Positions 3,283 through 21,926 of a stretch of DNA of 64,000 bases are shown in pieces. Each line of letters opens with the position of its first letter. The stretch's first letter is position 1. The stretch is from a bacterium. GTDB taxonomy: Bacteria > Auribacterota > Erginobacteria > Erginobacterales > DAOSXE01. The translations under genes and the position numbers were made by a program. The notes under the pieces were generated by a model. The model searched no databases and was not told the origin of the DNA. It saw only the letters and a list, made by a program, of their open reading frames with translations. The stretch lies in contig DAOSXE010000015.1 of the NCBI GenBank assembly GCA_035380285.1, forward strand, positions 1,927 through 65,926. Direction: 5' to 3'.

Positions 3283-3500
3283 CAGCCCGGCCCGGAGAAC
3301 GCCGGGGGCCAGCGCCGGGTCGGCGGCGTGCCGTCGCTCCAGGAGGGCGCCCAGTGCCTCGGCGCGGCGGTCGTAGAAATCCGCGAAGTCCGCGGTGGCT
3401 CCGGCGGCGGAGACGGGGGCGAGCCGCCGGGATTGCCGGATGTATTCCCGCGCCGTGCCGATTTCTCGTCCTCCGTTGTCGGCGACGGGCACGGGCGCCT

Positions 3501-5298: not shown

Positions 5299-5397
5299 TG
5301 GTTCGTTCCCCGGCGTTGCCGATACCCGAAAACCGGACCATCCTGCCGGCCCGGCCTGTTATAACCATACCACAGATCGGACGGAAACGCAGGAGAC

Positions 5398-8867: not shown

Positions 8868-8925
8868 GTTGCGCCCCTGTCCCCGTTTCGACGAGCCGGA
8901 CGGGGCCAACACGCGGAGCAATGCG

Positions 8926-11019
8926 ATGACCAGAGAAATACCAATCGAAAAAGTCCGAAACATCGGGGTCATGGCCCACATCGACGCCGGGAAAACCACG
9001 GTGACGGAACGCATCCTTTTCTTCACCGGCCGCAGCCATAAGATCGGAGAGGTACACGACGGCGAAGCGACCATGGACTGGATGGTTCAGGAACAGGAAC
9101 GCGGGATCACCATCACCTCGGCGGCCACCACCGCCTTCTGGAAAGGCCATAGAATCAACATCATCGATACCCCGGGCCACGTCGACTTCACCGCGGAAGT
9201 CGAGCGTTCGCTCCGGGTCCTGGACGGGACCGTCGCTCTCTTCTGCGCGGTGGGCGGCGTCCAGCCCCAGTCGGAGACGGTATGGCGCCAGGCCGAGAAA
9301 TACATGGTCCCGCGTATCGCCTTCATCAACAAGATGGACCGGATCGGGGCCGATTTCGACGGCGTGGTGAAGGAAATCGAGGTGACCCTGGGGGCCAACC
9401 CGGTTCCGATCGTGATCCCGATCGGGGCGGGCGCGGAATTCGAAGGCGTCGTCGATCTGATCGAGATGAAGGCGATTTTCTACGACGAGGCGCCCGTCGG
9501 GGCGCGGATCCGGGAAGAAGCCGTTCCGGCCGAGCTCAGGGAAAGAGCGGAAGCCGCCCGGGAGTTTTTAGTCGAACGGGTCAGCGAACAGGACGACGCC
9601 CTCATGGAGAAATACGTGGGGGGACAGGAACCCTCCCGGGACGAACTGACGGCGGCCCTGCGCGGGGCCGTCATCCGCGGGGAGGTCATCCCGGTCCTCT
9701 GCGGCGCCGCGTTCAAGAATAAGGGCGTCCGCCGGCTGCTCGACGCCATCGTCGATCTTCTCCCCTCCCCCCTCGACCTGCCCCCGGCCATCGGCACCCG
9801 CAAGGAGGAGAACAAGGAGATCATCCGCCACCCTTCCGAGGACGCCCCGCTGGCCGCCCTGGCCTTCAAGATCATGGCCGACCGGCACCTGGGGAAACTG
9901 ACCTACCTGAGGGTCTACTCGGGGGTGCTCGCCAACGGGTCGTTCGTCTTCAACTCCAACCTGGAAACCAGGCAGCGGGTGGGGCGGATATTCCTCATGC
10001 ACGCCAACAAGCAGCAGGCGGTCGACAATTTGAGAGCCGGCGAGGTGGGGGCGGTGGTCGGCCTGGCCGAGACCAGGACCGGAGACACCGTCTGCGACGA
10101 GGCGCACCCCATCATCCTGGAAAATATCGATTTCCCCGCCCCGGTGATCGGGGTGGCCGTGGCCCCCGCCAGCCGGGCGGACCGGGATCGCCTGGCGGCG
10201 GCCCTGAGCCGCCTGGCCGACGAAGACCCCACCTTCACCGTCCGCACCGAAGAGGAGACGGGCGAAGTGATCATCTCGGGCATGGGCGAACTGCACCTCG
10301 AGGTCATCGTCGATCGGCTCAAGCGCGAATTCAACGTCGCGGTCGAAGTCGGGCAACCCCAGGTCGCCTACCGGGAGACGATCCTGGGGGATATCGAGCA
10401 CCGTTACCGCCACGTCAAGCAGACCGGAGGCCACGGCCAGTTCGCCGACATCATCTTCCGGATCGAGCCGGGCCAACCCGGCGAAGGCTTCCAGTTCTTC
10501 AACGAAATCCGGGGGGGGAACATACCCCGGGAATACATTCCTTCGATCGAACGCGGGGTGGTCGACGCCATGGCCCAGGGACCCTACGCCGGATTTCCCA
10601 TGGTCGACATCGTTTATACCGTCCTGGACGGATCGGCCCACGAAGTCGACTCCTCGGACATGGCCTTCCGCACCTGCGCCGCAGTCGGCTTCAAGGAAGC
10701 CTGCCGCAAGGCGGGCCTGCAGCTTCTGGAACCGATGATGAGCGTGGAGATCGTCACCCCCGAAGAATATATCGGCCCCCTGACCGGGAGCATCTGTTCC
10801 AAGCGGGGAAAGGTAACGAGCCTGATCCACAAGGCCACGCACTGCGTCCTCGCGGGCCAGGTGCCCCTGGCCAACATGTTCGGCTATTCCTCGGAACTGC
10901 GCACCATCACCAGCGGCCGCGGCGATTTTTCCATGCATTTCGAACACTACGCCGCCGTGCCCTTCTCCCTGGCGGAGGAGATCGTGGAACGACGGCGCCG
11001 GGAAGAGAAAATTCCCTGA
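8926..11019 (+). CDS. fusA: Translation elongation factor G
   Basis: [34 protein letters not shown] and a full-length EF-G layout. Start chosen at [12 protein letters not shown] (8926); the track ORF starts at 8869. Confidence 0.95.
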
Positions 11020-11088
11020 AGCGGCGGCCGCGAGGGGGCCCGGCGGAAAAAAACCGGCTCCCCGGGGGAGGGAACCGGTCGTGGAGCT
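10915..11088 (+). repeat. Direct repeat copy 1 (174 bp): authentic fusA 3' end + spacer + 7 nt matching the tRNA-Ala 3' end
   Basis: By base-by-base reading it is identical to 21573-21746. It covers the last 34 fusA codons plus stop, 62 nt of spacer and TGGAGCT. Confidence 0.9.
11047..11078 (-). terminator. Hairpin + T7 terminator copy inside repeat copy 1, positioned to terminate the island operon
   Basis: Same sequence as 21705-21736. On the minus strand CCGG..CTCCC-CCG-GGGAG-CCGG is followed by TTTTTTT. Confidence 0.4.
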
Positions 11089-11281
11089 TTGTCCCTCGAT
11101 CTCAAACTTACTTTGACAACGAAAATGCGCCTACCGGAACATACGATTCGTGAAGTGTGGTTTACTTCACGACCGCGTGCGAGTATCGAGCCGCTCAGCA
11201 CGGGCGCGCAATAACCAGTGTCCTTTACCGTGCTGGCATATCATCACCGCTTTCCAGACCATAAGTACTCACTCGCTGAGT

Positions 11282-12310
11282 CTACGGCACCATCCTCGCG
11301 AAGTAAGGGTAGAGACGAGAGTACCGCTCGTAGTTGCTCATCTTGGCGATACTAACTTCCTCCGAGTCATCACCCTCAGTTAGATACCCTAGAGCGGTAA
11401 CACATACTGTCCCGTCTCCCGTTTCGGTCGGCAGAATTTCTTCGAGCTTCAGACGCTCCTTCGTGCTCAGCACCGGAACATCGATCTCATCGATCAAGCC
11501 CGAAGCAGTCACATAGAGGGGGCTCGTAGCCTTAAAGTGACCAAGCAACGCATCTCGGTTATTCTCCGGACAGAACACCCCTGTTATGCTTAACATAATT
11601 GTACCATCCGAGTACTTTGCCACCTGTAGCGGAAGAAAAGTCTTCGGCTTACTGCAAGCGCTCTCCAGAACCGATAGCACCATATGACTGAGCAACCATG
11701 GGAAGTTCTCCTCTTTGAAGTTCTCCCATGTGAACAGGTCATGGTCATAGGATACTTCTGCGACTGTCATGGCCTTCAGGTAATCATCTCGAAACTCATT
11801 GAAATCTTTCTTCTTGTAGGACGGAAGTATCTGCTGATGGCGCCGAAGCTTGACCTCCCTATATACCGGGGTCTCCGCCATGAGCGTTACCCGCAGCACA
11901 CTCCATTCAAGAGCCTGACGTGCGATACCGGACACTTCTGTCAACTCTTGTCGCCCAGCATCAACGTAATCCACCCACACAATCGTTGGTTTTTCGCTGG
12001 GAAACAGCGTTGACAGGAATTCCTCAAACCGACAGGACAGAAGTTTCACTTTTTTTGAACACTGGTGGAATTTCTGTCGCCTGTACGTCTCACCATCACT
12101 CTCAACCGACACCATGTCAAGGTTCGGGAACACGTTGCTCAGCAACCTGAAGTCTTCAAGAAACGGACCTCCAAACCCGATATACAAATGCTCTTTCAAG
12201 CTATGTGTGAGTTCAAACGTACGCAGCAACTCGACCAAGACCAAGCGATCAATAGCCTTGTTGGATCGCAAATGATATGCTGGATGTTTTGGTTTTCTGA
12301 GCCAGGTCAT
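11282..12310 (-). CDS. Hypothetical protein, last gene of the island operon; N-terminus weakly Rossmann/methyltransferase-fold-like
   Basis: 342 aa. The start overlaps the upstream gene by 4 nt. The pattern LYIGFGGPF ... MVSVESD ... VKLLSCRFEEFL ... TIVWVDYVD resembles beta1-beta4 of a class I MTase fold. I recognise no catalytic motif. Confidence 0.5.
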   Translation of the reverse strand: MTWLRKPKHPAYHLRSNKAIDRLVLVELLRTFELTHSLKEHLYIGFGGPFLEDFRLLSNVFPNLDMVSVESDGETYRRQKFHQCSKKVKLLSCRFEEFLSTLFPSEKPTIVWVDYVDAGRQELTEVSGIARQALEWSVLRVTLMAETPVYREVKLRRHQQILPSYKKKDFNEFRDDYLKAMTVAEVSYDHDLFTWENFKEENFPWLLSHMVLSVLESACSKPKTFLPLQVAKYSDGTIMLSITGVFCPENNRDALLGHFKATSPLYVTASGLIDEIDVPVLSTKERLKLEEILPTETGDGTVCVTALGYLTEGDDSEEVSIAKMSNYERYSRLYPYFARMVP

Positions 12311-13740
12311 TCCCTCGCCTCCTCAAGGATCACGTCAAAGCACCTCGCCCCAACATTGGATGGATTTCTGTCGGGGCTATCAAAGATGTACTGTGAAACA
12401 CGACGCACATCCCTGACAGCACGGGTAAAGACTATTCGCTCCGTCGTCTTCTTCTTGTCCGGTCGCGGTAACACAGGTTTGTACTGTTTGCCTTTCACGG
12501 CACCGCGCGTCGCAGTCATGTGCAATTTCAATGCTCGAGTTCGAATCTCGTCAAGCGTCGCTTTGTGTGTTGATCTCATCTCACATCGAGACTTGGCAAC
12601 GAGATCCTTACCTTTCCATTGGTTAGTGTACTGAGTGAACATCTTTGTTCCCTCAATCATCTTGTCACGCACCTGCAGGTAAAGAGGAGATGAGGCCTCG
12701 ATCCCTCTTTTGGTTGTCGTCATAGGCAAGAGATTCGCGTCATCCGCACTGAATATGACAATCCCCGATATCGCAATGAATTGCATGTGGTATTGCGGCA
12801 CTCCCGAAACTCCCCACCCAGTCAAAGGCGTCTTGTCACAGTAAACTACAGTTCGGTCGTTGCAGATCACAGTCCACCCGGCCTCTGCAGAAGAATACCG
12901 CTCCTTGTAGTTCTCAAGGCCTTCGTCTGCCTCCTCTCGGCTGGGGATCGGGCTCGTGAAACCCACAACAAGGAACACATCAACCCCATCGTGTTTCCCT
13001 TCGTAGATAAAGGGCATTATCGGGTGCTTCGATCTCACCGCTTCCTCCGCGAATAGCAGGCTTATGCTCCTAGGAGTTACCGCCTTTCCGTTGATACGGA
13101 CTTCAAACCCCTTGCCAATGATGTACGCATAGTGCGTCGCTACGGCCTCACGAAACGCTCTCTCAAAGGCTCCGGATTCGAATTCCGTACGCACGGATGA
13201 GTAAATACTTCTGATTTCAAGTGTGGTACCAAGAGTTTCTGCTGGCTTGATCGCGACTACGGGAATCAACCAGTCATCCTCTTTTGATATCCACTGCGGT
13301 GATAGCCGCAAACGGTAAGAACCGTCCTTCGCATGTGTTCTGATTGTGCAGTCCGCTCCCATCTTGAAGATGGCGCGCTTCATCCCAATTCCATACGTAC
13401 CGATGGTTTTTTTCCCCTTGTCTATGTCCGCTTTAATCCGTCCCATGCGAAAGGCGTAGTCATGGTATCTCACCGGTATCCCCCCACAGTTGTCTTCAAT
13501 CCTGAAGCGCGTCCCGTCAAACTCAATACTTGCCCAATATCCCTCGTATGGGAGACGCCTAGAAAGTTGCCGTTTCGTTTCAGCCCGCTGAATACCATCT
13601 ACACAGTTATCCAGCAGATCCAGGATCGCATCCTGAAGCTCGATGTCCCTTGTTAGCATATGTACGAAAAACGACTTGACCGGATTGGCCGGAATGTGTG
13701 GGATCTTCCTAAGATGCATCTGAGTAACCTCCTTATTCAA
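12307..13740 (-). CDS. GHKL (Bergerat-fold) ATPase, MORC-like / HATPase_c_3 type
   Basis: N-box AILDLLDNCVDG, G1 box EDNCGGIP, G2 box IGTYGIGMKRAIF. 477 aa, with a ~220-aa uncharacterised C-terminal half. Confidence 0.75.
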   Translation of the reverse strand: MNKEVTQMHLRKIPHIPANPVKSFFVHMLTRDIELQDAILDLLDNCVDGIQRAETKRQLSRRLPYEGYWASIEFDGTRFRIEDNCGGIPVRYHDYAFRMGRIKADIDKGKKTIGTYGIGMKRAIFKMGADCTIRTHAKDGSYRLRLSPQWISKEDDWLIPVVAIKPAETLGTTLEIRSIYSSVRTEFESGAFERAFREAVATHYAYIIGKGFEVRINGKAVTPRSISLLFAEEAVRSKHPIMPFIYEGKHDGVDVFLVVGFTSPIPSREEADEGLENYKERYSSAEAGWTVICNDRTVVYCDKTPLTGWGVSGVPQYHMQFIAISGIVIFSADDANLLPMTTTKRGIEASSPLYLQVRDKMIEGTKMFTQYTNQWKGKDLVAKSRCEMRSTHKATLDEIRTRALKLHMTATRGAVKGKQYKPVLPRPDKKKTTERIVFTRAVRDVRRVSQYIFDSPDRNPSNVGARCFDVILEEARE

Positions 13741-14914
13741 TAAACTCCTTCATGCGACTAAGTACGCTTTCTGCCAGAATCGGGCTGATGCTATTCCCGA
13801 TCTGTCTAAAGCTGTGCCACTTCGTCGAGTCGAACTGGAACCAGTCGGGGAAGCCCTGCAACCGGGCCGCTTCCCGGGGAGTAATGACGCGCGGCTCTGT
13901 GGGGTGAATTGGCCGAAGGGCTTGGTAGCTTCCATGCTCCGGGTCTGAGCCCGATCTTAGAGTCGGACAGAACCCCTTCCGTGCCAAACGCACAGCTCGC
14001 GAAGGCCCGTCAATGGCTCCCTCCGCCAGCTTGGCGAATCTCTCCAGAACGGTTTTCGTATGCCGTGTACCAAGACAGCCTGAAACGCGGTTCTCGTCTT
14101 GCAAGCGCCTAATCGCCTCCAGATCGCCAACACCCTCTGGTATCTTGTCGCGAATCCTTTCCCAAAACGGGCCGCTGTTGTGAGGCGTTACTGTGCGCCA
14201 ACTCTGGGCTTCTTGCTGCCACTCAGGACTGATCTTCTGGCGAAGACCTAGAAGTGCCGTCCCAACGTTGACTTTCGCGACGTTGGCAGGGGGCGCAAAA
14301 CAATCCTTCGTCAACCCGTTCGCACGCCCCACAACAATACCAATAAAGAACACTCGTTCTCGACTTGTTGCCGCGCCGAAATCCGATGCTTTGAGAATAA
14401 TAGGACCGAGGTTTATGTAGTTAGCCACTCTGGCCAACGCATTCGCGCGAACTTCGTCGAATTGAGAGTCCCGTATGCCTAGCACGTTCTCAGCAATGTA
14501 AAACGTGGGTTGAAGCTCCGCCACCAACCGAAAGAAGTGGTCGAACAGGTTGTTGCGCGCGTCATTTGGTTTGCGGCGACCGATTCGACTAAAACCCTGG
14601 CATGGCGGTCCACCGATAACCCCATCAATTCCGTTGATGTCGATTTGGGCCTTCTCAATAAGTTCTGCGCCTGTGAGTTCAGCAATGTTTGCATCAACGT
14701 ATTCGTATTTAGGGAAGTTCTTCTTGAAAGCGGATTTGGCTTGGGCATTGTTATCCACGGCTGCGGCAATCTGGAAGCCTGCGCGCGCTGCACCGAGAGT
14801 CAACCCTCCCACACCGCAGAACAAGTCAATGACCGTCGGCATACCTTCTGTTCCCTTCGCCGTTTTTCTGTTACCCGTGAAGCTCAGATCCGTCTCTATT
14901 CTTAACTGTATCAA
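13733..14914 (-). CDS. dcm: DNA (cytosine-5)-methyltransferase
   Basis: Motif I DLFCGVGGL, motif IV GGPPCQGFS, motif VI ENV, motif VIII SRERVFFIG, motif X QIGNSISP. The true start may be the internal MPTVIDLF. Confidence 0.9.
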   Translation of the reverse strand: MIQLRIETDLSFTGNRKTAKGTEGMPTVIDLFCGVGGLTLGAARAGFQIAAAVDNNAQAKSAFKKNFPKYEYVDANIAELTGAELIEKAQIDINGIDGVIGGPPCQGFSRIGRRKPNDARNNLFDHFFRLVAELQPTFYIAENVLGIRDSQFDEVRANALARVANYINLGPIILKASDFGAATSRERVFFIGIVVGRANGLTKDCFAPPANVAKVNVGTALLGLRQKISPEWQQEAQSWRTVTPHNSGPFWERIRDKIPEGVGDLEAIRRLQDENRVSGCLGTRHTKTVLERFAKLAEGAIDGPSRAVRLARKGFCPTLRSGSDPEHGSYQALRPIHPTEPRVITPREAARLQGFPDWFQFDSTKWHSFRQIGNSISPILAESVLSRMKEFIE

Positions 14915-15313
14915 TCACAGGCACTCCTCAAATCCATCTTCTGAAAGAATCGCTAGCCTTCCCCCTCTGCGAATCCAAGTGGCTATTCTCTTCACATCTC
15001 GGCCTTCACCAAACGCTGGGGTGCGCCTCCGAACGGCGCATTCCCAAATCACGAGAACACGCCAGCCCATATCTAGCAGTTTGCCTCGCACGCACAAATC
15101 TCGCAATCTGTTGCGTTTAATCTTCTTATTCCAAAACTGCTGATTGCTCTTTGCCTTCGGCCTTCGACCACATTCATGCCCATGCCAGTAGCATCCGTGG
15201 ACGAACACAACAGTCTTATGCCCGGCTAGAACAATGTCAGGTCGGCCCGGTAGATTCCTGGCGTGTAACCGATACCTAAAGCCTTCTCCAAACAGCGTCC
15301 TACGCACCTCCAT
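14915..15313 (-). CDS. vsr: Very-short-patch repair endonuclease (N-terminally short)
   Basis: GFRYRLHARNLPGRPDIVL...VFVHGCYWHGHEC...FWNKKIKRNRLRD...GWRVLVIWEC is the Vsr signature. It abuts the dcm start. Confidence 0.85.
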   Translation of the reverse strand: MEVRRTLFGEGFRYRLHARNLPGRPDIVLAGHKTVVFVHGCYWHGHECGRRPKAKSNQQFWNKKIKRNRLRDLCVRGKLLDMGWRVLVIWECAVRRRTPAFGEGRDVKRIATWIRRGGRLAILSEDGFEECL

Positions 15314-15386
15314 TTCCGGGCCTGTGTTTTTCCCCGATTCGCAGCCATGATCTTGTGCCGAGTCTCAGCATTTACTCGGTCCACCA

Positions 15387-15653
15387 TCAAGACTTCCCTG
15401 CCCTTTTGTCCCGTTGATGCACTTTGTTATGACAAACGATGCACAATGTCTTCAGGTTCCCTTCAATATTTACGCTGCCCTTCACGTGATGCTCGATGTG
15501 ATGCAACTCCAAGTGTCGCGGATCGAACGGGTTCCATTCGTCGTGCGCCCACGCGCAAAACCGGCACTTGTCCCCGTCGCGCCGAAGCAACGGAAGCAAG
15601 CCGAACACACAGTTCAATCGCTTGTCCGACATAGAGATGTGGGGCGACCGCAA
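15387..15653 (-). CDS. Small HNH endonuclease
   Basis: CRFCAW...LELHHIEHHVKG...NLKTLCIVCHNKVH (HNH/Zn-ribbon pattern). 88 aa. It overlaps the 3' end of the upstream gene by 40 nt, or 19 nt from the internal Met. Confidence 0.75.
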   Translation of the reverse strand: MRSPHISMSDKRLNCVFGLLPLLRRDGDKCRFCAWAHDEWNPFDPRHLELHHIEHHVKGSVNIEGNLKTLCIVCHNKVHQRDKRAGKS

Positions 15654-16720
15654 CCTGCAATCTCACCAACCGCCTGACCGACAACAGCGTATGTGTCATA
15701 GCTCGGTATCCGGAGCATTGGACCGGTGAAAGACGCACAAAGAAGAGGTACTCGTTCGCGTAGATGTGCAGACCCCAAATCTCCTCCGCCAATCTTCACA
15801 CCATGGTCAGCCACTACGAACACCCAATCGCCAGAACGAAGAAAATCCAAGAATGACTGTAGAAAAGCGTCAAACCGCTCAAGGGTTCGCCAGCACGCCG
15901 ATGCATCTCCCATGTGGGCATAACGGTCAAAATCCTCCAGATTGACCATGATAAATGCCTCGTCCTCCGCCGCTGTAACCTCTGCATTCAACAGCTCAAA
16001 GCACTGCTCGTCTCGCTCAGTTCGTACTGCCATATTCGCTGGCAAGGATAGGATTTCCTGCACCTTGCCGTTGACTATCCGTCTCCATCCAAGCGGCACG
16101 AATTTCTGCAGCAGAGACTCTCCATCGATCATCTGAAAGAAGTCACGCCGTAGTTCTTCAACCGGTTCTCCGCCACGCAACGGTCTTGCAAGCACCTTCT
16201 TCACGCATAACTCCGCTGATGCATCCAACATGCAGCGGAGTGCCTGTGCGACTTTATATAGACACTCACGGGGCACGACAATTTCATCTGCACTCACGAC
16301 CACAGTGCTGTCGAGCCCCCTATAGAGCATTATTGCCCCAGTTTGCAAATGTTCGAGCCACAACTCCGGGAGAACATCCCTGCCCCTTCCCTGTTTGTTG
16401 CCAATCAACTTAACTCCACAATTATTGCCAAGCTTCATCAGAACATCACGCGGTAGCGGTTCCGAGGGTATAGGGTGAGGTTGTTTAGTTATCCATCCGA
16501 ACATCTCGCGATGTCCTTCCTCCGATCCCACCGCGACTGACGCTTGTCTCATCACATGTCCACGACCCGTGACCGCAGCATCCAATCCCATATTAAAAAG
16601 GACTGGAAGAACGGAGATTTTGCGGCCGTACTGTTCGCACAGAGTCCCTAGGGTGCTGGTCTCACCGCCGTCAGGAGCAACTCCAAAACCATCTACAACG
16701 ATCACAAAAACGCGCGACAT
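15614..16720 (-). CDS. Phosphopentomutase (DeoB)-like metalloenzyme of the alkaline-phosphatase superfamily
   Basis: Blocks are collinear with E. coli DeoB as I recall it: RVFVIVVDGFGV (RAFIMVLDSFGIG), GHREMFG (SGHWEIAG), VLARPL (VIARPF), NLEDFDRYAHMGD (NFVDFDSSWGHRRD), VVADHG (LTADHG), HLRERVPLL (HTREHIPVL). Confidence 0.7.
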   Translation of the reverse strand: MSRVFVIVVDGFGVAPDGGETSTLGTLCEQYGRKISVLPVLFNMGLDAAVTGRGHVMRQASVAVGSEEGHREMFGWITKQPHPIPSEPLPRDVLMKLGNNCGVKLIGNKQGRGRDVLPELWLEHLQTGAIMLYRGLDSTVVVSADEIVVPRECLYKVAQALRCMLDASAELCVKKVLARPLRGGEPVEELRRDFFQMIDGESLLQKFVPLGWRRIVNGKVQEILSLPANMAVRTERDEQCFELLNAEVTAAEDEAFIMVNLEDFDRYAHMGDASACWRTLERFDAFLQSFLDFLRSGDWVFVVADHGVKIGGGDLGSAHLRERVPLLCASFTGPMLRIPSYDTYAVVGQAVGEIAGCGRPTSLCRTSD

Positions 16721-18534
16721 CAGGATTCAAATTTTCTGATTCGCAGGTTAACGAATTCAACAACTTTCCGCCAAAGACTGGCGATTGAAACTTTGCTGCC
16801 AAGCGAGAGTTCTCCTTCATACTGAAGAAGAAGAGGAATGATCGGTATAGTTACCTTTAGCTTGTCCGTAACAGAAATATCAGACTTCAGCACAGTGGAA
16901 GTAACGGAGACCCGTTCTGCGACCTTAGGCAAAATGGCTGAAGATTTTATGGTGTCACAGAGCGTCGCTAACACCTCTCTGGATTCTTCAAGCAGCGCTT
17001 TCATCTCCTCTGTTTCAGGCTCATGGTCCATCGCTGAGACGAATGACTCGACAACAACATCCCGGGCCGTTCTCGCCTCTGATACCGCCTCTGTAGCAGC
17101 GATCTTCCCTGCCATCTGAAGTTGTTCGTATTCCATGACAGACGCGACGACTCTGCCCCGTATCTCTAGGATATCTTCCTCAAGCCGCTGGATGCTTTTG
17201 GGTCGGTCCTCGACTCTCAGGGTATCTTCAGTGCGTTTGAGAAGGACGAAGTCCTTGCGTAGATTATCCCGAATATCTTCCAGCCTCTGTTTCTCTACCG
17301 GTATCCCGTTAGCCACTGTTTCGTCCTTCCTCTCTTCACAGGATCTGGGAACGCCGACGATTCTCCTCACATCGGTCAGAATATCCTTTGGGGCCGATGC
17401 CTCGGAGACAGCGCCAAGAATATGCACCAATGCTGTCACGCTCGAACGTATCCGCTCTGGGTCCGAAAGCAACCCGCGTCCCATTTGAATCATCACGTCC
17501 GCACCAAATGTCTCAACGTTCTGAAATATTTCTTCGAGGAAAATACTTCCCGAAGAAACAGCGAAGCATGGTCTGAGACCATACTGATCGCCCTGTAGCT
17601 TTTCGATTTCCTCCTTCAATATTGCTTGCTCATACGGAAAATCCTGGGTGAACGGCCCTGTGTAGACAGCATCTCCACCTGCAAGTCGCGAAAGTAGGGC
17701 AATTACCTGCTCCGCTAGGTAGTGCGTGCTCTTGCGCGTCAATACACCCCGGCCGATGTTGTTCACAACGAATGCTGTCTGACCATCACACGTATCGATC
17801 ACATGCCTGACAGCCGAAAAACCCATCGCGATACAGTTGAGGGTAAAACCACAAACGCCATGGCGCTGTCCATCCTCGACCAAGCGCAAGGATGTCTCCA
17901 CATCTGCGGTTGCATTCATGAAGTAGCCCAACTTGCGCCCCGTTTTCTCTTGGGCTGCAGTAACTACGGTTTCAATGGCCTGTGCGCGTTGTCCAAATGG
18001 ACTACAACTTGGGGACACGAGCAACTCGTCGTCAATCACGTAGTCAACACCACCCTCCAATGCTCTTTGCACTGTTGGGAGAATATCAGATAGACTCATG
18101 CGCAACCGCGGTTTCAGGATGAGCCCCAGAAGCGGCCGTTGGGAAACACCAAGAAGCTTCCTAATCCCTGATACACCATACCTTGGCCCCTTGTATTCAT
18201 CGAGGCAAACTTTGGGCAATGCCAGATCCACCACGGCAAATCGCTTCAGCGCTGAAAAGACAGAGCAATAGCACACACTCCCTAGGAGCATGGCGAGACC
18301 CGTACCAAGTCCAGCAGAACAAGGCGGCAGGGACAAAAGCACTTCAAGCTCGTTCTTGGATTGATCAATCTCACGAACATCGAGAATCTCTGGGTCTTCG
18401 TGAAATTCACAAGGCTCATCGGTACGTCGCAGCGGAATCGTTCCGGTGCTGCCTAGATCCATCGCAGCGAGGAGTTGCTTCAGCCCCTTCTCACGGTTTT
18501 CTAGGATCATGTGAAGTGTTACAGTTGCATGCAT
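16720..18534 (-). CDS. Divergent RuBisCO large-subunit-like protein (RLP) with ~240-aa C-terminal extension
   Basis: N-domain AAMDLGSTGT. Barrel blocks GPRYGVSGIRKLLGVSQRPLLGLILKPRL, GGVDYVIDDE, TGRKLGYFMNAT, LSRLAGGDAVYTG, AVSSGS, MIQMGRG are collinear with RuBisCO/RLP blocks. IDDE replaces KDDE. Confidence 0.75.
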   Translation of the reverse strand: MHATVTLHMILENREKGLKQLLAAMDLGSTGTIPLRRTDEPCEFHEDPEILDVREIDQSKNELEVLLSLPPCSAGLGTGLAMLLGSVCYCSVFSALKRFAVVDLALPKVCLDEYKGPRYGVSGIRKLLGVSQRPLLGLILKPRLRMSLSDILPTVQRALEGGVDYVIDDELLVSPSCSPFGQRAQAIETVVTAAQEKTGRKLGYFMNATADVETSLRLVEDGQRHGVCGFTLNCIAMGFSAVRHVIDTCDGQTAFVVNNIGRGVLTRKSTHYLAEQVIALLSRLAGGDAVYTGPFTQDFPYEQAILKEEIEKLQGDQYGLRPCFAVSSGSIFLEEIFQNVETFGADVMIQMGRGLLSDPERIRSSVTALVHILGAVSEASAPKDILTDVRRIVGVPRSCEERKDETVANGIPVEKQRLEDIRDNLRKDFVLLKRTEDTLRVEDRPKSIQRLEEDILEIRGRVVASVMEYEQLQMAGKIAATEAVSEARTARDVVVESFVSAMDHEPETEEMKALLEESREVLATLCDTIKSSAILPKVAERVSVTSTVLKSDISVTDKLKVTIPIIPLLLQYEGELSLGSKVSIASLWRKVVEFVNLRIRKFES

Positions 18535-18543
18535 AATCGATCC

Positions 18544-19113
18544 TTAGTGCTTAACGTCAATGACTTTGCCATCTACAAGAAAGGTTCCGCTCGTCAAGTG
18601 GTACACCTGCGGTATTGCACTTCTCAGTTTTATCTTATCCTCTGAGAACAATTCTTTATCGATATCTGCTGCAACGACCAATCCAACAACAACGTGGTGG
18701 TTTCCTGCCTCCTTGTGCCATTGCAGCTTACATTCCAGATTGACTGCACATTCTGCTATCCGCGCGGGCTTCACCTTGTTCCTCGCATATGGTGTCAATC
18801 CCGTTTCCTCAAACTCATCCACGGCCGGCGGATACTCGTTAGCAGCCTGGTAAAGTTGAGTCAGAATCTTGCTCGTAGGAATTCCTACCACAAACTCGCC
18901 GGTCTTTGAGATATTCTTGAAGGTGTCAGACTTTGGCGAGATACCAAGCGCAACCATCGGGGGGCACGTCGAACACGGCGTGAACATAGCGTAGGGTGCC
19001 AAGTTCTTAACCCCCGCTGTGTCGACCGTTGACACGAGTACAACAGGGGACGGCTGAACCAAGTAGACAACTTTTGCAACTTTGTCTAAGACCTCGATCT
19101 TCTGATACTTCAT
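18544..19113 (-). CDS. Flavin reductase-like (FMN-binding split-barrel) protein
   Basis: 189 aa. PSPVVLVSTVDTAGVKNLAPYAMFTPCSTCPPMVALGISPKSDTFKNISKTGEFVVGIP matches the flavin reductase-like domain pattern. Confidence 0.7.
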   Translation of the reverse strand: MKYQKIEVLDKVAKVVYLVQPSPVVLVSTVDTAGVKNLAPYAMFTPCSTCPPMVALGISPKSDTFKNISKTGEFVVGIPTSKILTQLYQAANEYPPAVDEFEETGLTPYARNKVKPARIAECAVNLECKLQWHKEAGNHHVVVGLVVAADIDKELFSEDKIKLRSAIPQVYHLTSGTFLVDGKVIDVKH

Positions 19114-21059
19114 CTTGTATCTCCTCTCATCTGATCTACCATTTCAACCAAATCCGCAAAAACAAGGTCTGGCCGGGAATCATGCGTGCGTCGAGCCACA
19201 TCTTCAGCAGTACTTATCCCTCCAAGAACAAGGCAAGCCAACGCTCCAGCCTTTCTGGCTGCTGCTATGTCAGTATCGAGCGAATCCCCAATTACGGCTA
19301 CCTCTTGCGGTTTCATACCCATAAGATGAAGTAGAAGGCGAAGCGAGAAGTCATTTGGTTTCCCCACGACAAAGGGCGATTTGCCAGTTACTGTTTCAAT
19401 TGCAGCCACAATCCAGCCAGTTCCGGGCTTGTCCATACCCGGAGCAGCGAACACACGATCCCGGTCCGTGCATACGAACTCCGCACCCTTCAAAATTGCT
19501 CGCTGGGCTGCCACTAGGTCGGCATATATGAAATCCTTTGAATAGCCAACGACAACTGCGTCAATGTAACCAGTGTGATCATTGGCGGCGATATCCATGC
19601 CACCGCAGGCGAGCAACTCAGGTAGTGCTGGTGCTCCACCCAGCACCAAGCAACACCTGTATCCCTTAGTGCGGCAATACTCGGCAGCGGCAATAGTGGA
19701 CGTCATGATATGCCGCGGGTCCGCTATCACGGCCATCTGGCCGAGTTTGTCTGCTAACTCCTGCTGCCTTCTTACGCTCGTGTTTGTCAAGAAGCCAACT
19801 GTAACGCCAGATTGTCGCAAAATGCGAATGGCCGCGAGGCTGGCTTCTATCGGCTTGTCTCCTTTATAGAGAACACCGTCGAGATCCAGCACAACTCCCC
19901 GTTTTGAAGCCAGATCCCGCAGCTTATCCGTGGACTTTACTGGCACCCTCGGATGGCGTGGCTCGCGTGGGCGTGAACATTGGATCGTATAGAGCGACCT
20001 CACGGCGGTATTCCAGGATAGCTTGTACTCTTCATGGCCGCGCATGAAATCAACTTCCTGTAGCCCGTTATCGCAAGCCCATCGAATCGCTTCACCCAAT
20101 AGCACTAGCCCCGGAGAACAATCGTCTAACGCCAAATCAAAGGATGTGTTCCAGTCATAGTATCTGCCACCACGGATGAAGCCCATCCGATAAGCAACTA
20201 TGTTGCCGTTCAGAAGCAGATGAAAAAGACAGAAATTCCCGGTTCCGGCGAAATCTTTCGCAACGTCATGAATGAAGCCTCTGCGCCTTGTGTCGGCAAA
20301 TGCTTGGACTCCGTGAATACTGTCCCAACGAGTATCATGGAGATCAAATAGACGTTCGAGGGTTTCATGGTCGTAATCCCGGACAACTTGGAGTTCTACC
20401 TTGCCGCGGCGGCGCAGAGCCCGCATCTTGCGGTTCAGCATTCGCCGCCGGTTTCTTGTCCGTGACTTAAGATACTTATCCCAAGAACAACCAAGTTCTA
20501 TATACGGCGCATCCTCTGCCCTGACAATAACCGGTGATAGACCGCAATCTTGAAGTGCACGTGTTACAATGTGCAAGGTGACGTCATCTTGCCGTATGTT
20601 TTGTAGCCTTATTTCATCCCATTCCAAATGGTCGCACATCGCGGCTGCGATGCGGTCGATAGGATCACATGCAAAGGCCGAGAAGACTCCGCCTAGGTAG
20701 TCACTACAACAATCAGAAAGAAGCGTAAGGATCGTATGGGATCCTACGCGTTTGCGCATCAGAGGCAGAATGGCAAGAACGTCATCTCCCAGCGCGGCCC
20801 AGAAGATGGACAATTCCCTGTCAGAACCGAAGTGGCCCCACCAGTACGAAAGCCAACGTGGATCAACCGAGACTGGAAGGTTAGGCTGTTTTTCAAGGAT
20901 CTTAACCCAGTGAGGGTAGATTGCGGACCACTCCTCATTGCTCCTCACAACACCGACCTGGGCCCTACGATAGTCGCGTTCCGTCGACATGTAGTTACGC
21001 AGGGAATATTGCCAACTTGTCTGTGATGCATCCAGCCAGCTATCGCTGCACATCATCAC
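19110..21059 (-). CDS. Fusion protein: GNAT-type (FemAB/CelD-like) acyltransferase + HAD-IIA (NagD-like) phosphatase
   Basis: The N-terminal ~360 aa end in VDFMRGHEEYKLSW (CelD/BioF2-like GNAT pattern). The C-terminal part has VVLDLDGVLYKG, FLTNTS, VGKPN and IGDSLDTDIAAARKAGA, which are HAD motifs I-IV of the IIA subclass. Confidence 0.7.
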   Translation of the reverse strand: MMMCSDSWLDASQTSWQYSLRNYMSTERDYRRAQVGVVRSNEEWSAIYPHWVKILEKQPNLPVSVDPRWLSYWWGHFGSDRELSIFWAALGDDVLAILPLMRKRVGSHTILTLLSDCCSDYLGGVFSAFACDPIDRIAAAMCDHLEWDEIRLQNIRQDDVTLHIVTRALQDCGLSPVIVRAEDAPYIELGCSWDKYLKSRTRNRRRMLNRKMRALRRRGKVELQVVRDYDHETLERLFDLHDTRWDSIHGVQAFADTRRRGFIHDVAKDFAGTGNFCLFHLLLNGNIVAYRMGFIRGGRYYDWNTSFDLALDDCSPGLVLLGEAIRWACDNGLQEVDFMRGHEEYKLSWNTAVRSLYTIQCSRPREPRHPRVPVKSTDKLRDLASKRGVVLDLDGVLYKGDKPIEASLAAIRILRQSGVTVGFLTNTSVRRQQELADKLGQMAVIADPRHIMTSTIAAAEYCRTKGYRCCLVLGGAPALPELLACGGMDIAANDHTGYIDAVVVGYSKDFIYADLVAAQRAILKGAEFVCTDRDRVFAAPGMDKPGTGWIVAAIETVTGKSPFVVGKPNDFSLRLLLHLMGMKPQEVAVIGDSLDTDIAAARKAGALACLVLGGISTAEDVARRTHDSRPDLVFADLVEMVDQMRGDTR

Positions 21060-21064
21060 TCCTG

Positions 21065-21262
21065 TTACTTGCTTTTTTCTTCCCGGGCGGCGAGATTCTC
21101 CTCAATCATGCGTGACACAATCCAAGAGAGCGAACGCTCCTCTTTCTCCGTCAACTCTTCCAAGATTTCTTAGACTTGCGGGGTAACTCGGACGCTCAGG
21201 AGTTTTATTTTCAGTTCAACCTTGTGCCTTTTCGTAGGGTGTACGACGTCATGCATTTGCAT
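21065..21262 (-). pseudogene. Ribbon-helix-helix (CopG/Arc-like) regulator gene interrupted by an in-frame TAA
   Basis: My translation is MQMHDVVHPTKRHKVELKIKLLSVRVTPQV*EILEELTEKEERSLSWIVSRMIEENLAAREEKSK*. The internal TAA is at 21170-21172. The strand-helix-helix pattern is continuous across the stop. The gene ends 5 nt before the 649-aa gene, which has an AGGAG RBS. Confidence 0.55.
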
Positions 21263-21330
21263 GCTGATTTTAATAATATATGATGTGTATGCTGTGTGAT
21301 GATAGTAGAAAGAAGAAGGATCCGATAAAC
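21263..21330 (-). promoter_or_regulatory. AT-rich putative promoter region of the island operon
   Basis: This is the most AT-rich stretch in the window (minus strand ...CATCATATATTATTAAAATCAGC-ATG). Several TATATT/TATTAT -10-like hexamers lie just upstream of the RHH start. I found no clear -35 or SD. Confidence 0.25.
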
Positions 21331-21572
21331 TGCTTTCTGTATGCCCATTAGTCGATTGATTAGTCCACCCGTCAGATGCTATAAATTGAGGCGCAGGTCA
21401 CGGGACTTTTGGAGTATGCCCAGAAGGAACGTCTGCATCGTGGAGAAGTTTACGGAATTCATGACAGCATGGAAACCGGGCTGACCGGTTTTCAATGCAA
21501 TGATGGATCGGGGAGTCAAATGCGCTGCTCGCGTGGCTCCCTGACCGCTTCGGGCGTAACCCACTCGGCGGG

Positions 21573-21677
21573 GGCCGCGGCGATTTTTCCATGCATTTCG
21601 AACACTACGCCGCCGTGCCCTTCTCCCTGGCGGAGGAGATCGTGGAACGACGGCGCCGGGAAGAGAAAATTCCCTGA
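21573..21677 (+). pseudogene. Orphan 3' fragment of fusA (last 34 codons + stop) inside repeat copy 2
   Basis: It encodes [34 protein letters not shown]. The upstream sequence in the same frame has no resemblance to EF-G. Confidence 0.85.
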
Positions 21678-21704
21678 AGCGGCGGCCGCGAGGGGGCCCG
21701 GCGG

Positions 21705-21736
21705 AAAAAAACCGGCTCCCCGGGGGAGGGAACCGG
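21705..21736 (-). terminator. Rho-independent terminator candidate downstream of tRNA-Ala
   Basis: On the minus strand a hairpin (outer CCGG/CCGG, inner CTCCC-CCG-GGGAG) is followed by T7 (plus-strand A-run 21705-21711). It starts 4 nt after the tRNA 3' end. Confidence 0.45.
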
Positions 21737-21739
21737 TCG

Positions 21740-21812
21740 TGGAGCTGAGGGGATTCGAACCCCTGACCCCATGGCTGCCAGCCATGTGCTCTCCCAGCTG
21801 AGCTACAGCCCC
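21740..21812 (-). tRNA. tRNA-Ala (anticodon GGC)
   Basis: A 73-nt cloverleaf folded by hand: acceptor GGGGCUG/CAGCUCC with the G3:U70 alanine identity pair, D-arm GCUC-AGCUGGGA-GAGC, anticodon loop CU-GGC-AG, T-arm AGGGG-UUCGAAU-CCCCU, A73. No CCA is encoded. Confidence 0.95.
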
Positions 21813-21826
21813 GATCAATCGGGTCA

Positions 21827-21854
21827 ACTATAGCCGCGGAGCCGATCTAGTCAA
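21827..21854 (-). promoter_or_regulatory. Sigma-70-type promoter of tRNA-Ala
   Basis: Minus strand: TTGACT (21849-21854), 16-nt spacer, TATAGT (21827-21832), 14 nt before the mature 5' end. An A/T-rich tract lies upstream. Confidence 0.55.
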
Positions 21855-21926
21855 ATAAAAACTGCAGCGCCGTTCCCGACGCTGCCCGGGGCCGCGGGTT
21901 GTGGTATACTCAAAAGGCGGGAACCC

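Follow-up and report, generated by a model that had tools for sequence, protein, structure and literature searches.

Organisation of the island

Ten tightly packed genes, all on the minus strand, fill positions 11282-21262 of the window, the whole 64,000-nucleotide stretch that was analysed. They lie in a low-GC island where GC content falls from ~0.65 to ~0.52 (65% vs 52%), with the step exactly over 11001-22000. Two perfect copies of a 174-nt direct repeat enclose the block. The features, read from right to left, are:

21739-21812, minus strand: tRNA-Ala(GGC), at the right repeat copy
21573-21746, no strand: right 174-nt repeat copy, abutting and overlapping (8 nt) the tRNA-Ala(GGC) 3' end
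21065-21262, minus strand: CopG-type ribbon-helix-helix (RHH) gene (RHH_1, E 8e-7 with the TAA at 21172-21170 read through)
19110-21059, minus strand: GNAT-HAD fusion, 648-649 aa, first gene of the cassette; Fem-type double GNAT (Acetyltransf_6) plus HAD-IIA (NagD/PGP-like)
18544-19113, minus strand: flavin-reductase-like split-barrel FMN-binding protein, 189 aa (Pfam Flavin_Reduct 2e-26; closest PDB entry 1eje)
16720-18534, minus strand: RuBisCO-like protein (RLP), 604 aa; short N-domain plus TIM barrel (~residues 1-380), then a coiled coil
15614-16720, minus strand: DeoB-like metalloenzyme of the phosphopentomutase family, 368 aa, which closes the cassette (NF003766 1e-42, below cut-off)
15387-15653, minus strand: small HNH nuclease, 88 aa (81 aa with ATG 15632 as start), which opens the restriction-modification (R-M)-like module (Pfam HNH 3.4e-6; PADLOC ZorE-like HNH)
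14915-15387, minus strand: disrupted gene for a Vsr very-short-patch endonuclease (Pfam and TIGR00632)
13733-14914, minus strand: C5-cytosine DNA methyltransferase (Dcm), 393 aa (Pfam DNA_methylase 7.8e-56; PADLOC MTase_II 2.7e-89; TIGR00675)
12307-13740, minus strand: GHKL (HATPase_c_3) ATPase of MORC/paraMORC type, 477 aa (Pfam; phrog_20521, E 1.5e-162, full length)
11282-12310, minus strand: Rossmann methyltransferase-like protein of 342 aa from PF20553 (Methyltransf_35), which closes the module (Pfam E 2.4e-53; phrog_19983)
10915-11088, no strand: left 174-nt repeat copy, containing the 3' end of an EF-G-like gene, a hairpin terminator that works in both directions and the last 8 nt of tRNA-Ala

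The ten reading frames and nine junctions of the initial annotation were all reproduced, and Pfam, NCBIfam and PADLOC upheld each of its family calls. Its GNAT call was correct as to type and is more exactly a Fem-type double-GNAT fold. The 342-aa gene that it listed as unknown exists, but the product belongs to Pfam PF20553 (Methyltransf_35, E 2e-53).

The RHH gene is separated from the GNAT-HAD fusion by a 5-nt gap, the fusion overlaps the flavin reductase gene by 4 nt, a 9-nt gap precedes the RLP gene, and the RLP and DeoB-like genes overlap by 1 nt. The HNH gene begins within the 3' end of the DeoB-like gene, with an overlap of 40 nt, or of 19 nt if HNH starts at ATG 15632. Further along, Vsr and Dcm abut directly, Dcm and GHKL overlap by 8 nt, and GHKL and PF20553 overlap by 4 nt. 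The single-strand, operon-like packing is real in both strand and junctions. The 73-nt gap between HNH and Vsr is present between the open reading frames as listed, but it is an artefact: a 1-nt deletion within the A-run at ~15328-15334 breaks the Vsr gene, whose true start codon, the ATG at 15387, overlaps with the stop of HNH (TGATG). A tblastn search with the intact Vsr of locus L026 placed residues 1-20 in one frame and residues 19-157 in another. The RHH gene, already noted as interrupted, carries a single in-frame TAA at 21172-21170 and probably represents a regulator in decay; other loci that carry the cassette do not conserve it. With both Vsr and RHH pseudogenised, part of the island is therefore decaying.

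The only strong minus-strand terminators are the two copies of the duplicated tRNA-Ala terminator (21738-21710 and 11080-11052). The left repeat copy is both the island boundary and the de facto terminator of the train. A split of the train by a strong internal terminator or promoter, as the initial annotation had considered, was looked for; no strong minus-strand terminator was found inside the train, and promoter-like matches across it were not above shuffled expectation. The 10.66-kb interval between the EF-G-like gene and tRNA-Ala is a horizontally acquired island.

The restriction-modification-like module

The genes from 15653 to 11282 encode HNH, frameshifted Vsr, Dcm, the GHKL ATPase and the PF20553 protein. 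Operons of GHKL, Dcm, Vsr and HNH have been published as R-M systems (PMC2292703). In agreement with the initial reading of this distal half, the module matches the MORC/paraMORC restriction-modification theme published in 2008 and belongs to that class of R-M-like systems, a known type. Dcm marks self DNA; under the published model the GHKL ATPase, acting together with partner proteins and the nuclease, would target unmarked DNA.

An autonomous unit of Dcm, GHKL and PF20553 was found in four other contexts (L026, L027, L028/29 and the Pseudomonas Pf prophage PfAC20). The GHKL ATPase is 30% identical to an 'ATP-binding protein' of Pseudomonas phage PfAC20 that adjoins a cytosine methylase. The PF20553 protein has 325 homologues, adjoining GHKL and Dcm in 3/3 sampled contexts. 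Translational coupling links HNH to Vsr and not to the DeoB-like gene.

The four-gene cassette

The remaining four genes (21059-15614) encode the Fem-like GNAT-HAD fusion, the flavin-reductase-like protein, the RLP and the DeoB-like phosphomutase. In the fusion, the N-terminal half is the Fem-type double GNAT and the C-terminal half is a HAD-IIA phosphatase, closest to Pho2/PH1952 phosphatases, and its motifs (D391, D393, K566, D591 and D596) are intact and invariant. The DeoB-like protein keeps all metal ligands of B. cereus PPM (4lra), with Ser66 replacing Thr85 as nucleophile; the ligands and the serine are conserved in the family alignment. NCBIfam equivalog scores of the cassette proteins are all far below cut-offs, and no PADLOC model and no PHROG matched any of the four.

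The RLP is nearest to archaeal type III RuBisCO. Because the carbamylated lysine is lost (K201 is Ile167 here, and I or V across the family), it cannot act as a carboxylase. H294/R295 are replaced by N/N and H327 by Y, while K175, D203, E204 and S379 are kept and the conserved pocket is retained; kept and substituted positions alike are invariant across 30-58% identity. The K201-less state was seen in ~90 of the 136 motif-bearing top hits. Without K201, H294, R295 and H327, the protein cannot carry out the known carbamate-dependent reactions of RuBisCOs or RLPs. The coiled coil of ~200 aa, which ends in the conserved motif KLK.TIPIIPLLL.Y, probably oligomerises the protein, whose predicted model is modest (pLDDT 64). 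Full-length RLP forms ~10 clusters in 1.84 billion representatives, and the GNAT-HAD fusion ~20.

The cassette is strictly syntenic in ~ten independent loci. It was found alone and in the same gene order in L001-3, L004, L006, L007, L008-11, L021/L033/L034, L022, L032 and L014, the last being the Ruminococcus sp. JE7B6 chromosome. Identities of the four proteins co-vary across loci, from 58/71/58/50% down to ~32/50/31/33%. Known defence genes (restriction enzymes, GmrSD-like, DruA, HerA, Cmr2, WYL) occur in 5/10 contexts and mobile-element genes in 5/10, with both kinds at L001-3 and L032; no recognisable defence gene was found near the cassette in several (L007, L008, L021). Neighbours matched by PADLOC or Pfam were type III REase, HEC-05/GmrSD_N, Cas10/Cmr2, DruA (5e-179), HerA, NsnA, WYL and HD-CE. 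The mobile-element neighbours were serine recombinases, resolvase, ParA, DUF6017, D5 primase, IS elements and a group II intron.

Some relatives of the RLP are linked to immune domains. In the L022 orthologue a TIR_2 domain (E 9e-32) has been inserted between barrel and coiled coil, and the coiled-coil tail marks the site at which relatives have gained a TIR NADase effector. In a more distant relative, P0224, TIR is fused to the RLP, and the operon also holds His_Phos_1 and a DUF4062-NACHT-TPR protein downstream. TIR occurs in only one of ~10 full-length cassette clusters, and NACHT only in the more distant clade. The cassette encodes no obvious infection sensor, and most versions have no classical toxic effector. 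In a full-text search of a literature library, no paper brought RuBisCO-like together with anti-phage or with a TIR domain, and none combined RuBisCO, ADP-ribose and conflict systems. The four-enzyme cassette is rare, self-contained, mobile and previously undescribed. The initial proposal of an undescribed candidate defence system in this region is borne out by these four genes, for which guilt by association across the ~ten contexts tips us slightly towards a role in defence or conflict.

Competing explanations and proposed role

We considered whether the cassette is ordinary metabolic cargo for salvage or catabolism of nucleosides or pentose compounds, like the MtnW/MtnX enolase-phosphatase or the archaeal pentose-bisphosphate pathway. 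All four proteins look like ordinary metabolic enzymes and come from metabolic families, and the cargo of mobile elements can be metabolic or biosynthetic as well. The mutase and phosphatase catalytic residues are intact, the closest relatives of the RLP, HAD domain and flavoprotein (type III RuBisCO, Pho2/PH1952 and 1eje) favour this reading, and the RLP with its HAD phosphatase parallels MtnW with MtnX, where an RLP is likewise paired with a HAD phosphatase. However, the RLP has lost residues that define RuBisCO chemistry, so an ordinary salvage operon with conserved catalytic residues, which the initial annotation had set against its own reading, is not what was found. Low equivalog scores, an extremely rare and patchy distribution, location on mobile elements or in defence islands, and the TIR and NACHT links of relatives also speak against it. 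The cassette comes without a kinase, phosphorylase, isomerase, transporter or sugar-responsive regulator, and no riboswitch was found upstream. Metabolic cargo is an unlikely explanation.

A small biosynthetic cluster, making a secondary metabolite, secreted or kept in the cell, such as an acylated or aminoacylated pentose- or nucleoside-like compound, for competition or signalling between bacteria and not for phage defence, is also improbable. With its extra amidase and SAM methyltransferase, the variant operon L025 (GNAT, amidase, methyltransferase, flavin reductase, RLP) resembles natural-product tailoring. HAD phosphatases and flavoproteins are typical tailoring steps, here a terminal phosphatase and a flavoprotein, and a small membrane-peptide ORF precedes the Firmicute cassettes. 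On the other hand, exporter, resistance gene and core scaffold synthase are absent, the neighbours are defence and mobile-element genes rather than biosynthetic ones, and the TIR insertion in the orthologue is typical of immune proteins.

The initial annotation fused all ten genes into one candidate system. In such a system, the pentose-phosphate half would make a sugar-derived DNA or nucleotide modification that Dcm, GHKL, Vsr and HNH install or police. The shared strand, the tight or overlapping junctions (DeoB-like and HNH included) and the lack of a strong internal terminator are consistent with this idea, as is an HD-CE protein near two other cassette loci (L022, L006), which at L022 also has a GHKL domain. 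Yet Dcm, paraMORC-type GHKL and PF20553 were found in 0/9 other cassette contexts, and the cassette in 0/4 other contexts of the Dcm, GHKL and PF20553 unit. The L006 neighbour matched only HD-CE and, weakly, IucA_IucC; the two HD-CE proteins have no more than that domain in common and share nothing specific with the GHKL ATPase of the window. HNH is coupled to Vsr rather than to a cassette gene, and the cassette has no glycosyltransferase, base-exchange enzyme or DNA-binding enzyme. Gene-neighbourhood data largely refute a single system, which is highly improbable. The halves occur independently elsewhere, as in the possibility of two unrelated cargo modules that had also been listed, and we are confident that two autonomous modules share one island and are transcribed in the same direction by chance. 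They may be co-transcribed and may interact functionally in the present host, because no internal terminator was found.

An assembly artefact, whether of the juxtaposition alone or of the whole island, is scarcely conceivable: although the window comes from a metagenome-assembled genome, the island is base-for-base the same, Vsr frameshift and RHH stop included, in metagenome contigs ERZ795048 and Ga0209203 from different projects, over a stretch that runs from the right repeat copy on the tRNA-Ala side across the module junction into the left copy. Both contigs end inside the left copy, so the left junction to the EF-G-like gene is spanned by the present assembly only; assembler breaks are expected at a 174-nt repeat.

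The cassette is most likely an anti-phage or conflict module acting on a phosphorylated pentose. Candidate substrates are ribose-5-P, ribose-1-P, ribose-1,5-P2, PRPP and ribose phosphate derived from NAD or ADP-ribose. In one doubtful order of reactions, the DeoB-like enzyme would move or remove a phosphate, and the remodelled RuBisCO-like barrel would bind the sugar phosphate and enolise or isomerise it without carboxylation. The flavoprotein would supply or remove reducing equivalents, the Fem-like domain would acylate or aminoacylate the product, and the fused HAD domain would take off the remaining phosphate. The pathway would either yield a small antiviral molecule or irreversibly drain the precursors of nucleotides or NAD; in the case of an antiviral product, the biosynthetic explanation overlaps with this one. 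Overall, the locus is probably best explained as an acquired island that combines an R-M-like module with an independent candidate defence cassette directed at pentose phosphates.

Gene content and boundaries of the island

ORF listing and translation confirmed the ten reading frames on the minus strand from 11282 to 21262 and the junctions first described for them. The second to fifth genes make up a four-gene cassette (21059-15614) and the last five a module resembling a restriction-modification (R-M) system (15653-11282).

Genes of the island. Assignments come from domain searches.
21262-21065, minus strand: CopG-type RHH protein, with one in-frame TAA at 21172-21170
21059-19110, minus strand: Acetyltransf_6 GNAT fused to HAD-IIA phosphatase (GNAT-HAD)
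19113-18544, minus strand: flavin-reductase-like protein
18534-16720, minus strand: RuBisCO-like protein (RLP), 604 aa
16720-15614, minus strand: phosphopentomutase-like (DeoB-like) metalloenzyme
15653-15387, minus strand: small HNH nuclease
15387-14915, minus strand: Vsr, frameshifted
14914-13733, minus strand: C5 cytosine methylase (Dcm)
13740-12307, minus strand: GHKL (HATPase_c_3) ATPase
12310-11282, minus strand: Pfam PF20553 (Methyltransf_35) protein, 342 aa

Two details of the initial annotation were revised. Its 342-aa unknown is not an orphan and belongs to the Methyltransf_35 family, and its 73-nt gap between HNH and Vsr is an artefact. The Vsr frame is broken at about 15328-15334, where an A-run has lost 1 nt; A5 stands there and A6 would restore the frame. 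The ATG of the repaired Vsr overlaps the HNH stop codon as TGATG, which closes the gap and couples HNH to Vsr. The frameshift could be that of a genuine pseudogene or slippage-prone phase variation. In the RHH gene the premature TAA (21170-21172) is a single base change away from CAA, AAA or GAA, which would give a 65-aa CopG-like protein. No RHH gene was found upstream of other cassettes; it is unique to the window. Since Vsr and RHH are a decaying part of the island, neither module can be taken for certain to be active in this host.

Across 11-22 kb of the window, GC content is about 0.52, down from about 0.65. The island lies between two identical, directly repeated copies of a 174-nt sequence (10915-11088 and 21573-21746), which holds the last 105 nt of a gene at 8869-11019 that we take from its translation to be EF-G-like, an intergenic bidirectional hairpin terminator, and 8 nt from the 3' end of tRNA-Ala(GGC) (21739-21812). 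Direct repeats thus surround DNA of foreign composition beside a tRNA gene, as in tRNA-associated integrative islands. Neither recombinase nor integrase was found by Pfam among the ten genes and the small end ORFs, where integrase remnants were looked for. Directly outside the island, amid ordinary housekeeping genes, lies a 512-aa ORF (21927-23465, plus strand), presumably a Memo-like/AMMECR1 fusion going by its translation alone; the island is set among core genes.

Two contigs from other projects (L016 and L017) are 100% identical to the window from past the right repeat copy, through the island and into the left copy, in support of the junction on the right and of the internal structure. 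Both terminate within the left copy, and the left junction is spanned by the window's assembly only. Because all three assemblies carry the same state, the Vsr frameshift and the RHH nonsense codon cannot be put down to an error in a single assembly.

The strongest terminator-like structures of the region are the repeat hairpin and its duplicate (21738-21710 and 11080-11052, minus strand), the latter just downstream of the final island gene. Inside the ten-gene train no terminator of comparable strength was found, and promoter-like matches were not above shuffled expectation. Co-transcription of all ten genes is therefore possible, and the two modules are probably co-expressed in this host. 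This leaves room for host-specific interplay that comparative genomics would not see.

Separate distributions of the two modules

The initial annotation had proposed the island as a candidate single system fusing R-M with pentose-phosphate functions, a reading that was to fall if homologues of the two halves never occurred together elsewhere. The contexts of RLP, GNAT-HAD and PF20553 homologues largely refute it, as none of those searched has the two halves together. The RLP is very rare: 13 matches came from 5.8 billion clustered proteins, and its full-length clusters number about 10 among 1.84 billion representatives. Every full-length relative lies within the identical gene order GNAT-HAD, flavin reductase, RLP, DeoB-like.

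Neighbours of the cassette at the loci of its homologues
L001-L003: type III restriction enzyme and methylase, GmrSD_N/HEC-05 protein, IS fragment, Cas10/Cmr2
L004: DruA (PADLOC 5e-179), HerA-like ATPase
L006: HD-CE protein
L007: none informative; short contig
L008-L011: LytTR-domain protein in L008; short contigs
L014 (complete Ruminococcus sp. JE7B6 chromosome): large serine recombinase, YhcG nuclease, group II intron
L021/L033/L034: element with resolvase, ParA and DUF6017
L022: HD-CE-GHKL, PDDEXK_2, radical SAM, thymidylate-synthase-like protein, UDG-SocA(Panacea) fusion
L032: D5 primase, NsnA/GmrSD_N, WYL-WCX, IS elements

Dcm, paraMORC-like GHKL and PF20553 genes are absent from all nine tabulated contexts. 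Identities of the four proteins to the window copies co-vary, from 58/71/58/50% at L001 down to about 32/50/31/33% at the Firmicute loci, the pattern expected of a cassette inherited as a unit. The PF20553 protein has 325 detectable homologues. All three that were sampled (61%, 49% and 35% identity) lie within units of Dcm, GHKL (about 472 aa) and PF20553, with or without Vsr, and none of these three loci carries the cassette. Clearly, the island holds two autonomous mobile modules. Tight same-strand packing within a defence island does not make one system, and an attractive inference is thereby corrected.

Operons of GHKL, DCM and VSR genes, some with HNH or other nucleases, have been described as laterally mobile R-M systems (Iyer, Abhiman & Aravind 2008, PMC2292703). 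The distal module resembles these MORC/paraMORC systems in its adjacent GHKL (HATPase_c_3) ATPase, cytosine methylase, Vsr and HNH, that is, a GHKL ATPase beside a DNA methylase with a nuclease or Vsr. The arrangement is conserved in L026-L029 and in PfAC20. The placement is at the level of the MORC/paraMORC class and not of a specific paraMORC family, with Vsr frameshifted here. An SF-II helicase occurs in about 70% of prokaryotic MORC neighbourhoods, a minority being without one (PMC2292703); unlike that majority, the island has no SF-II helicase. It also differs from MORC/paraMORC systems in that the conserved partner is the methyltransferase-like PF20553 protein rather than a recognised nuclease of the restriction fold. 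Given the recurrence of GHKL with Dcm and PF20553 and the operons in PMC2292703, the distal half is, judged from its gene content, a member of an already described kind of R-M system. With PADLOC-DB 2.0 HMMs, Dcm, Vsr and HNH match generic R-M models only, and the GHKL and PF20553 proteins match none. The recurrent trio of Dcm, GHKL and PF20553 is thus documented here and is missed by the models of an existing defence finder (PADLOC 2.0). Both the GHKL and PF20553 proteins match PHROG families. In the filamentous Pseudomonas phage PfAC20 (L035, PP058144.1, 280-3711), an ATP-binding GHKL protein, a 317-aa hypothetical protein and a cytosine methyltransferase stand in a row as accessory cargo. 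A literature search on PF20553 and HD-CE yielded nothing informative.

A recurrent GHKL/HD-CE partner for the cassette was considered and rejected: the HD-CE proteins of L006 and L022 share that domain only, and the GHKL protein of the window is unrelated. In Firmicute cassettes a conserved ORF, 35-44 aa long, abuts the GNAT-HAD start (L008 1257-1364; L006 4710-4844; L033 8937-9044; L034 7149-7256). Its product has a basic N-terminus followed by one hydrophobic helix, e.g. MKRKMLSIIHLAVAIGSLILTIDKAITIFLEKSET, and may be a fifth component, a membrane peptide. No such ORF is present upstream of the cassette in the window or in its closest relative, L001. A small upstream ORF or regulator shared by all cassettes was rejected, the ORF being limited to Firmicute versions and the RHH gene to the window. 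No riboswitch or other ligand-revealing RNA was found upstream of the cassettes. One of them has a RAGATH-18 RNA (L033 7638-7710) at a distance of about 1.3 kb on its upstream side, and three Gut-1 RNAs are scattered in the defence island of L032 (4189-4260, 18793-18870 and 20429-20503).

The RuBisCO-like protein and its partner enzymes

The RLP has the large-subunit N-domain and TIM barrel (Pfam RuBisCO_large, 2.7e-24), a two-domain fold that it shares with type III RuBisCO and with form IV RLPs (the MtnW enolase, the R. rubrum isomerase, OiaX/OiaT). In both sequence and structure it is best matched by archaeal type III RuBisCOs (8dht, 3a13, 2cwx), with 1.7e-31 by phmmer against 8dht and 1.8e-22 by Foldseek against 2cwx over 400 columns. 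Residue equivalences were obtained by alignment to T. kodakarensis RuBisCO mapped onto the family alignment.

Active-site residues of RuBisCO (standard numbering) and their RLP equivalents
K175: K141, kept
K177: R143
K201: I167; I or V in all family members, motif VIDDE in place of KDDE
D203, E204: D169, E170, kept
H294, R295: N258, N259
H298: R262
H327: Y291
K334 loop: lost
S379: S328, kept

These pocket positions are invariant or nearly so over 30-58% identity, which argues that the pocket is under selection. With the carbamylated lysine K201 lost, carbamate-dependent chemistry is excluded, and carboxylation with it. Loss of K201 is not peculiar to the cassette. It covers nearly all of the best 60 representative RLP matches, and among the best 150 about 90 of the 136 motif-bearing proteins have V, I, A, T, F, M or C at this position. 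A genuine e2b2-RuBisCO fusion with the KDDE motif (P0266) was seen only among distant matches. Cupin and nucleotidyl-transferase fusions also exist in the RLP clade, mostly in proteins that retain the lysine. Two K201-less RLPs (P0181 and P0186) have N-terminal extensions of 250-330 aa in which no Pfam domain was found and which, by eye, we take to resemble the N-termini of SARP/BTAD-type regulators.

Unlike type III RuBisCO and form IV RLPs, the cassette RLP carries about 200 further residues at its C-terminus, a coiled coil for which long helices are predicted and which ends in a conserved KLK.TIPIIPLLL.Y hairpin and an amphipathic helix. The C-terminal 225 aa have no significant Pfam match, and the AlphaFold model gives the tail as low-confidence helices and the hairpin (pLDDT 64 for the whole model). 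A further difference is its occurrence in mobile or defence contexts, with TIR fusions among its relatives. RLPs are usually encoded beside sugar-phosphate enzymes, and this one likewise adjoins a mutase and a HAD phosphatase. NCBIfam equivalog cut-offs are not reached (MtnW, 105 bits vs 409; OiaX, 92 vs 700; rubisco_III, 141 vs 497). A methionine-salvage MtnW/MtnX operon was rejected, as mtnK, mtnA, mtnB and mtnD are absent from the island and from every related locus. The archaeal pentose-bisphosphate (AMP) pathway was rejected too, with neither AMP phosphorylase nor ribose-1,5-bisphosphate isomerase in the cassette and the RLP catalytic residues lost.

Compared with B. cereus phosphopentomutase, the DeoB-like protein conserves all Mn ligands (D13, D286, H291, D327, H328, H339), and Ser66 replaces the phospho-acceptor Thr85 in all cassette members. 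It scores 146 bits against an NCBIfam equivalog cut-off of 256. The GNAT-HAD protein gave a good AlphaFold model (pLDDT 84). Its phosphatase half carries the HAD-IIA (NagD/PGP) signature, with invariant motifs I-IV (DxDG, S/T, K, GDxxxD) and a type IIA cap; beyond the fusion family its nearest HAD homologues are HAD-NUDIX fusions. The N-terminal half has the double-GNAT fold of Fem-type transferases. Unlike the aminoacyl-tRNA-dependent enzymes of that type (FemX/FemA, MprF, Sbb17), to which it is 11-16% identical, it is fused to a HAD-IIA phosphatase. Acetyltransf_6 members include acyl-CoA users as well, e.g. BspF, and the donor here might be either an aminoacyl-tRNA or an acyl-CoA. The flavoprotein is closest to the FMN-binding protein 1eje.

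Immune links and a proposed role of the cassette

TIR or NACHT modules are occasionally joined to relatives of the RLP. In L022 the orthologous RLP (3360-5648) reaches 762 aa through an inserted TIR_2 domain (residues 419-540, E 9e-32), placed precisely where the barrel gives way to the coiled coil. Read from the sequence, it contains the CKAEW glutamate, which is typical of NADase-active TIRs. A close relative, P0135, is without the insertion. The best 150 RLP representatives include a single TIR fusion. In the wider K201-less clade, P0224 has an N-terminal TIR fused to the RLP, followed by a His_Phos_1 phosphatase/mutase and a DUF4062-NACHT-TPR STAND protein. An operon of this make-up at L031 (262-4964), and also at L030, encodes a TIR_2-RLP fusion with F at K201 and looks like an NLR-type immune operon with a RuBisCO-like domain. 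TIR enzymes make or consume ribose-containing NAD derivatives, a chemistry that would be compatible with a pentose-phosphate-binding partner. The likeness to Thoeris and other TIR/STAND systems is confined to these relatives, the L022 RLP and the P0224 fusion. The window cassette differs from such systems in lacking TIR, SIR2, SLOG and Macro domains and a ThsA-like effector, and it gave no PADLOC Thoeris match.

Two themes recur among the relatives, RLP with a phosphatase or phosphomutase and RLP with a Fem-like GNAT and a flavoprotein. A Zixibacteria variant has a stand-alone HAD-IIA protein and a tail-less RLP beside an integrase. The variant operon of L025 (144-3812) encodes an Acetyltransf_6 GNAT, an amidase, a SAM methyltransferase, a flavin reductase and an RLP with an IDDE motif. 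Its gene content suggests a conserved core of GNAT, flavoprotein and RLP with variable tailoring enzymes.

We favour a role for the cassette as a defence or conflict module acting on a phosphorylated pentose. This reading is favoured by the mobile-element and defence-island contexts (about 10 loci, several of them short contigs), the rarity and patchiness of the cassette, the TIR and NACHT links, and the absence of catabolic, transport or regulatory genes alongside it. The cassette was not found in phage collections (IMG/VR with RLP and GNAT-HAD profiles; PHROG), which points the same way. The main rivals are a secondary-metabolite cluster unrelated to phages and ordinary metabolic cargo. The former gains some weight from the Fem-like fold and the L025 variant, and would merge with the defence reading if its product were antiviral. 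Metabolic cargo is opposed by the same contexts, immune links and missing companion genes.

Any order of reactions for the favoured defence role is tentative and inferred from the chemistry of the families. In the boldest reading, a ribose phosphate that stems from NAD, ADP-ribose, PRPP or nucleotides would be bound or converted by the carbamate-less barrel. With the phosphomutase, phosphatase, Fem-like transferase and flavoprotein as its partners, the barrel would either eliminate a precursor on which phages depend or yield a pentose derivative with antiviral activity. Such precursor starvation, or an antiviral small molecule, from metabolic enzymes of a defence island would resemble the action of nucleotide-depleting enzymes and prokaryotic viperins. 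Unlike those metabolite-based defences, the cassette encodes no homologue of dCTP deaminase, dGTPase, viperin or Detocs PNP. The wider K201-less clade, TIR fusions and NACHT-linked operons included, might be a family of immune sensors or enzymes. We propose only tentatively, and with rather more doubt than confidence, that the cassette encodes a bacterial immune system of a new class, the first centred on a RuBisCO-superfamily protein, and that the K201-less clade is an immune family.

None of the four cassette proteins matched a PADLOC-DB 2.0 model, and the set of RLP, phosphopentomutase-like protein, Fem-HAD fusion and flavoprotein is without precedent among PADLOC 2.0 systems. Full-text literature searches found no pairing of RuBisCO-like with anti-phage or TIR domain, or of RuBisCO with ADP-ribose and conflict systems. 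The sole match for phosphopentomutase with defence island was a citation of the alkaline-phosphatase superfamily in a BREX paper. Neither the cassette nor the immune links of the K201-less RLP clade appear to have been described in the literature searched.

Should the cassette prove to be a defence system, the RuBisCO/RLP superfamily and pentose-phosphate metabolism would join the known repertoire of prokaryotic immunity. The TIR-inserted orthologue would offer an experimental handle tying NAD cleavage to pentose-phosphate chemistry. Furthermore, a function would be gained for a sizeable clade of RLPs that, being without the carbamylated lysine, is unexplained by current RLP biochemistry.
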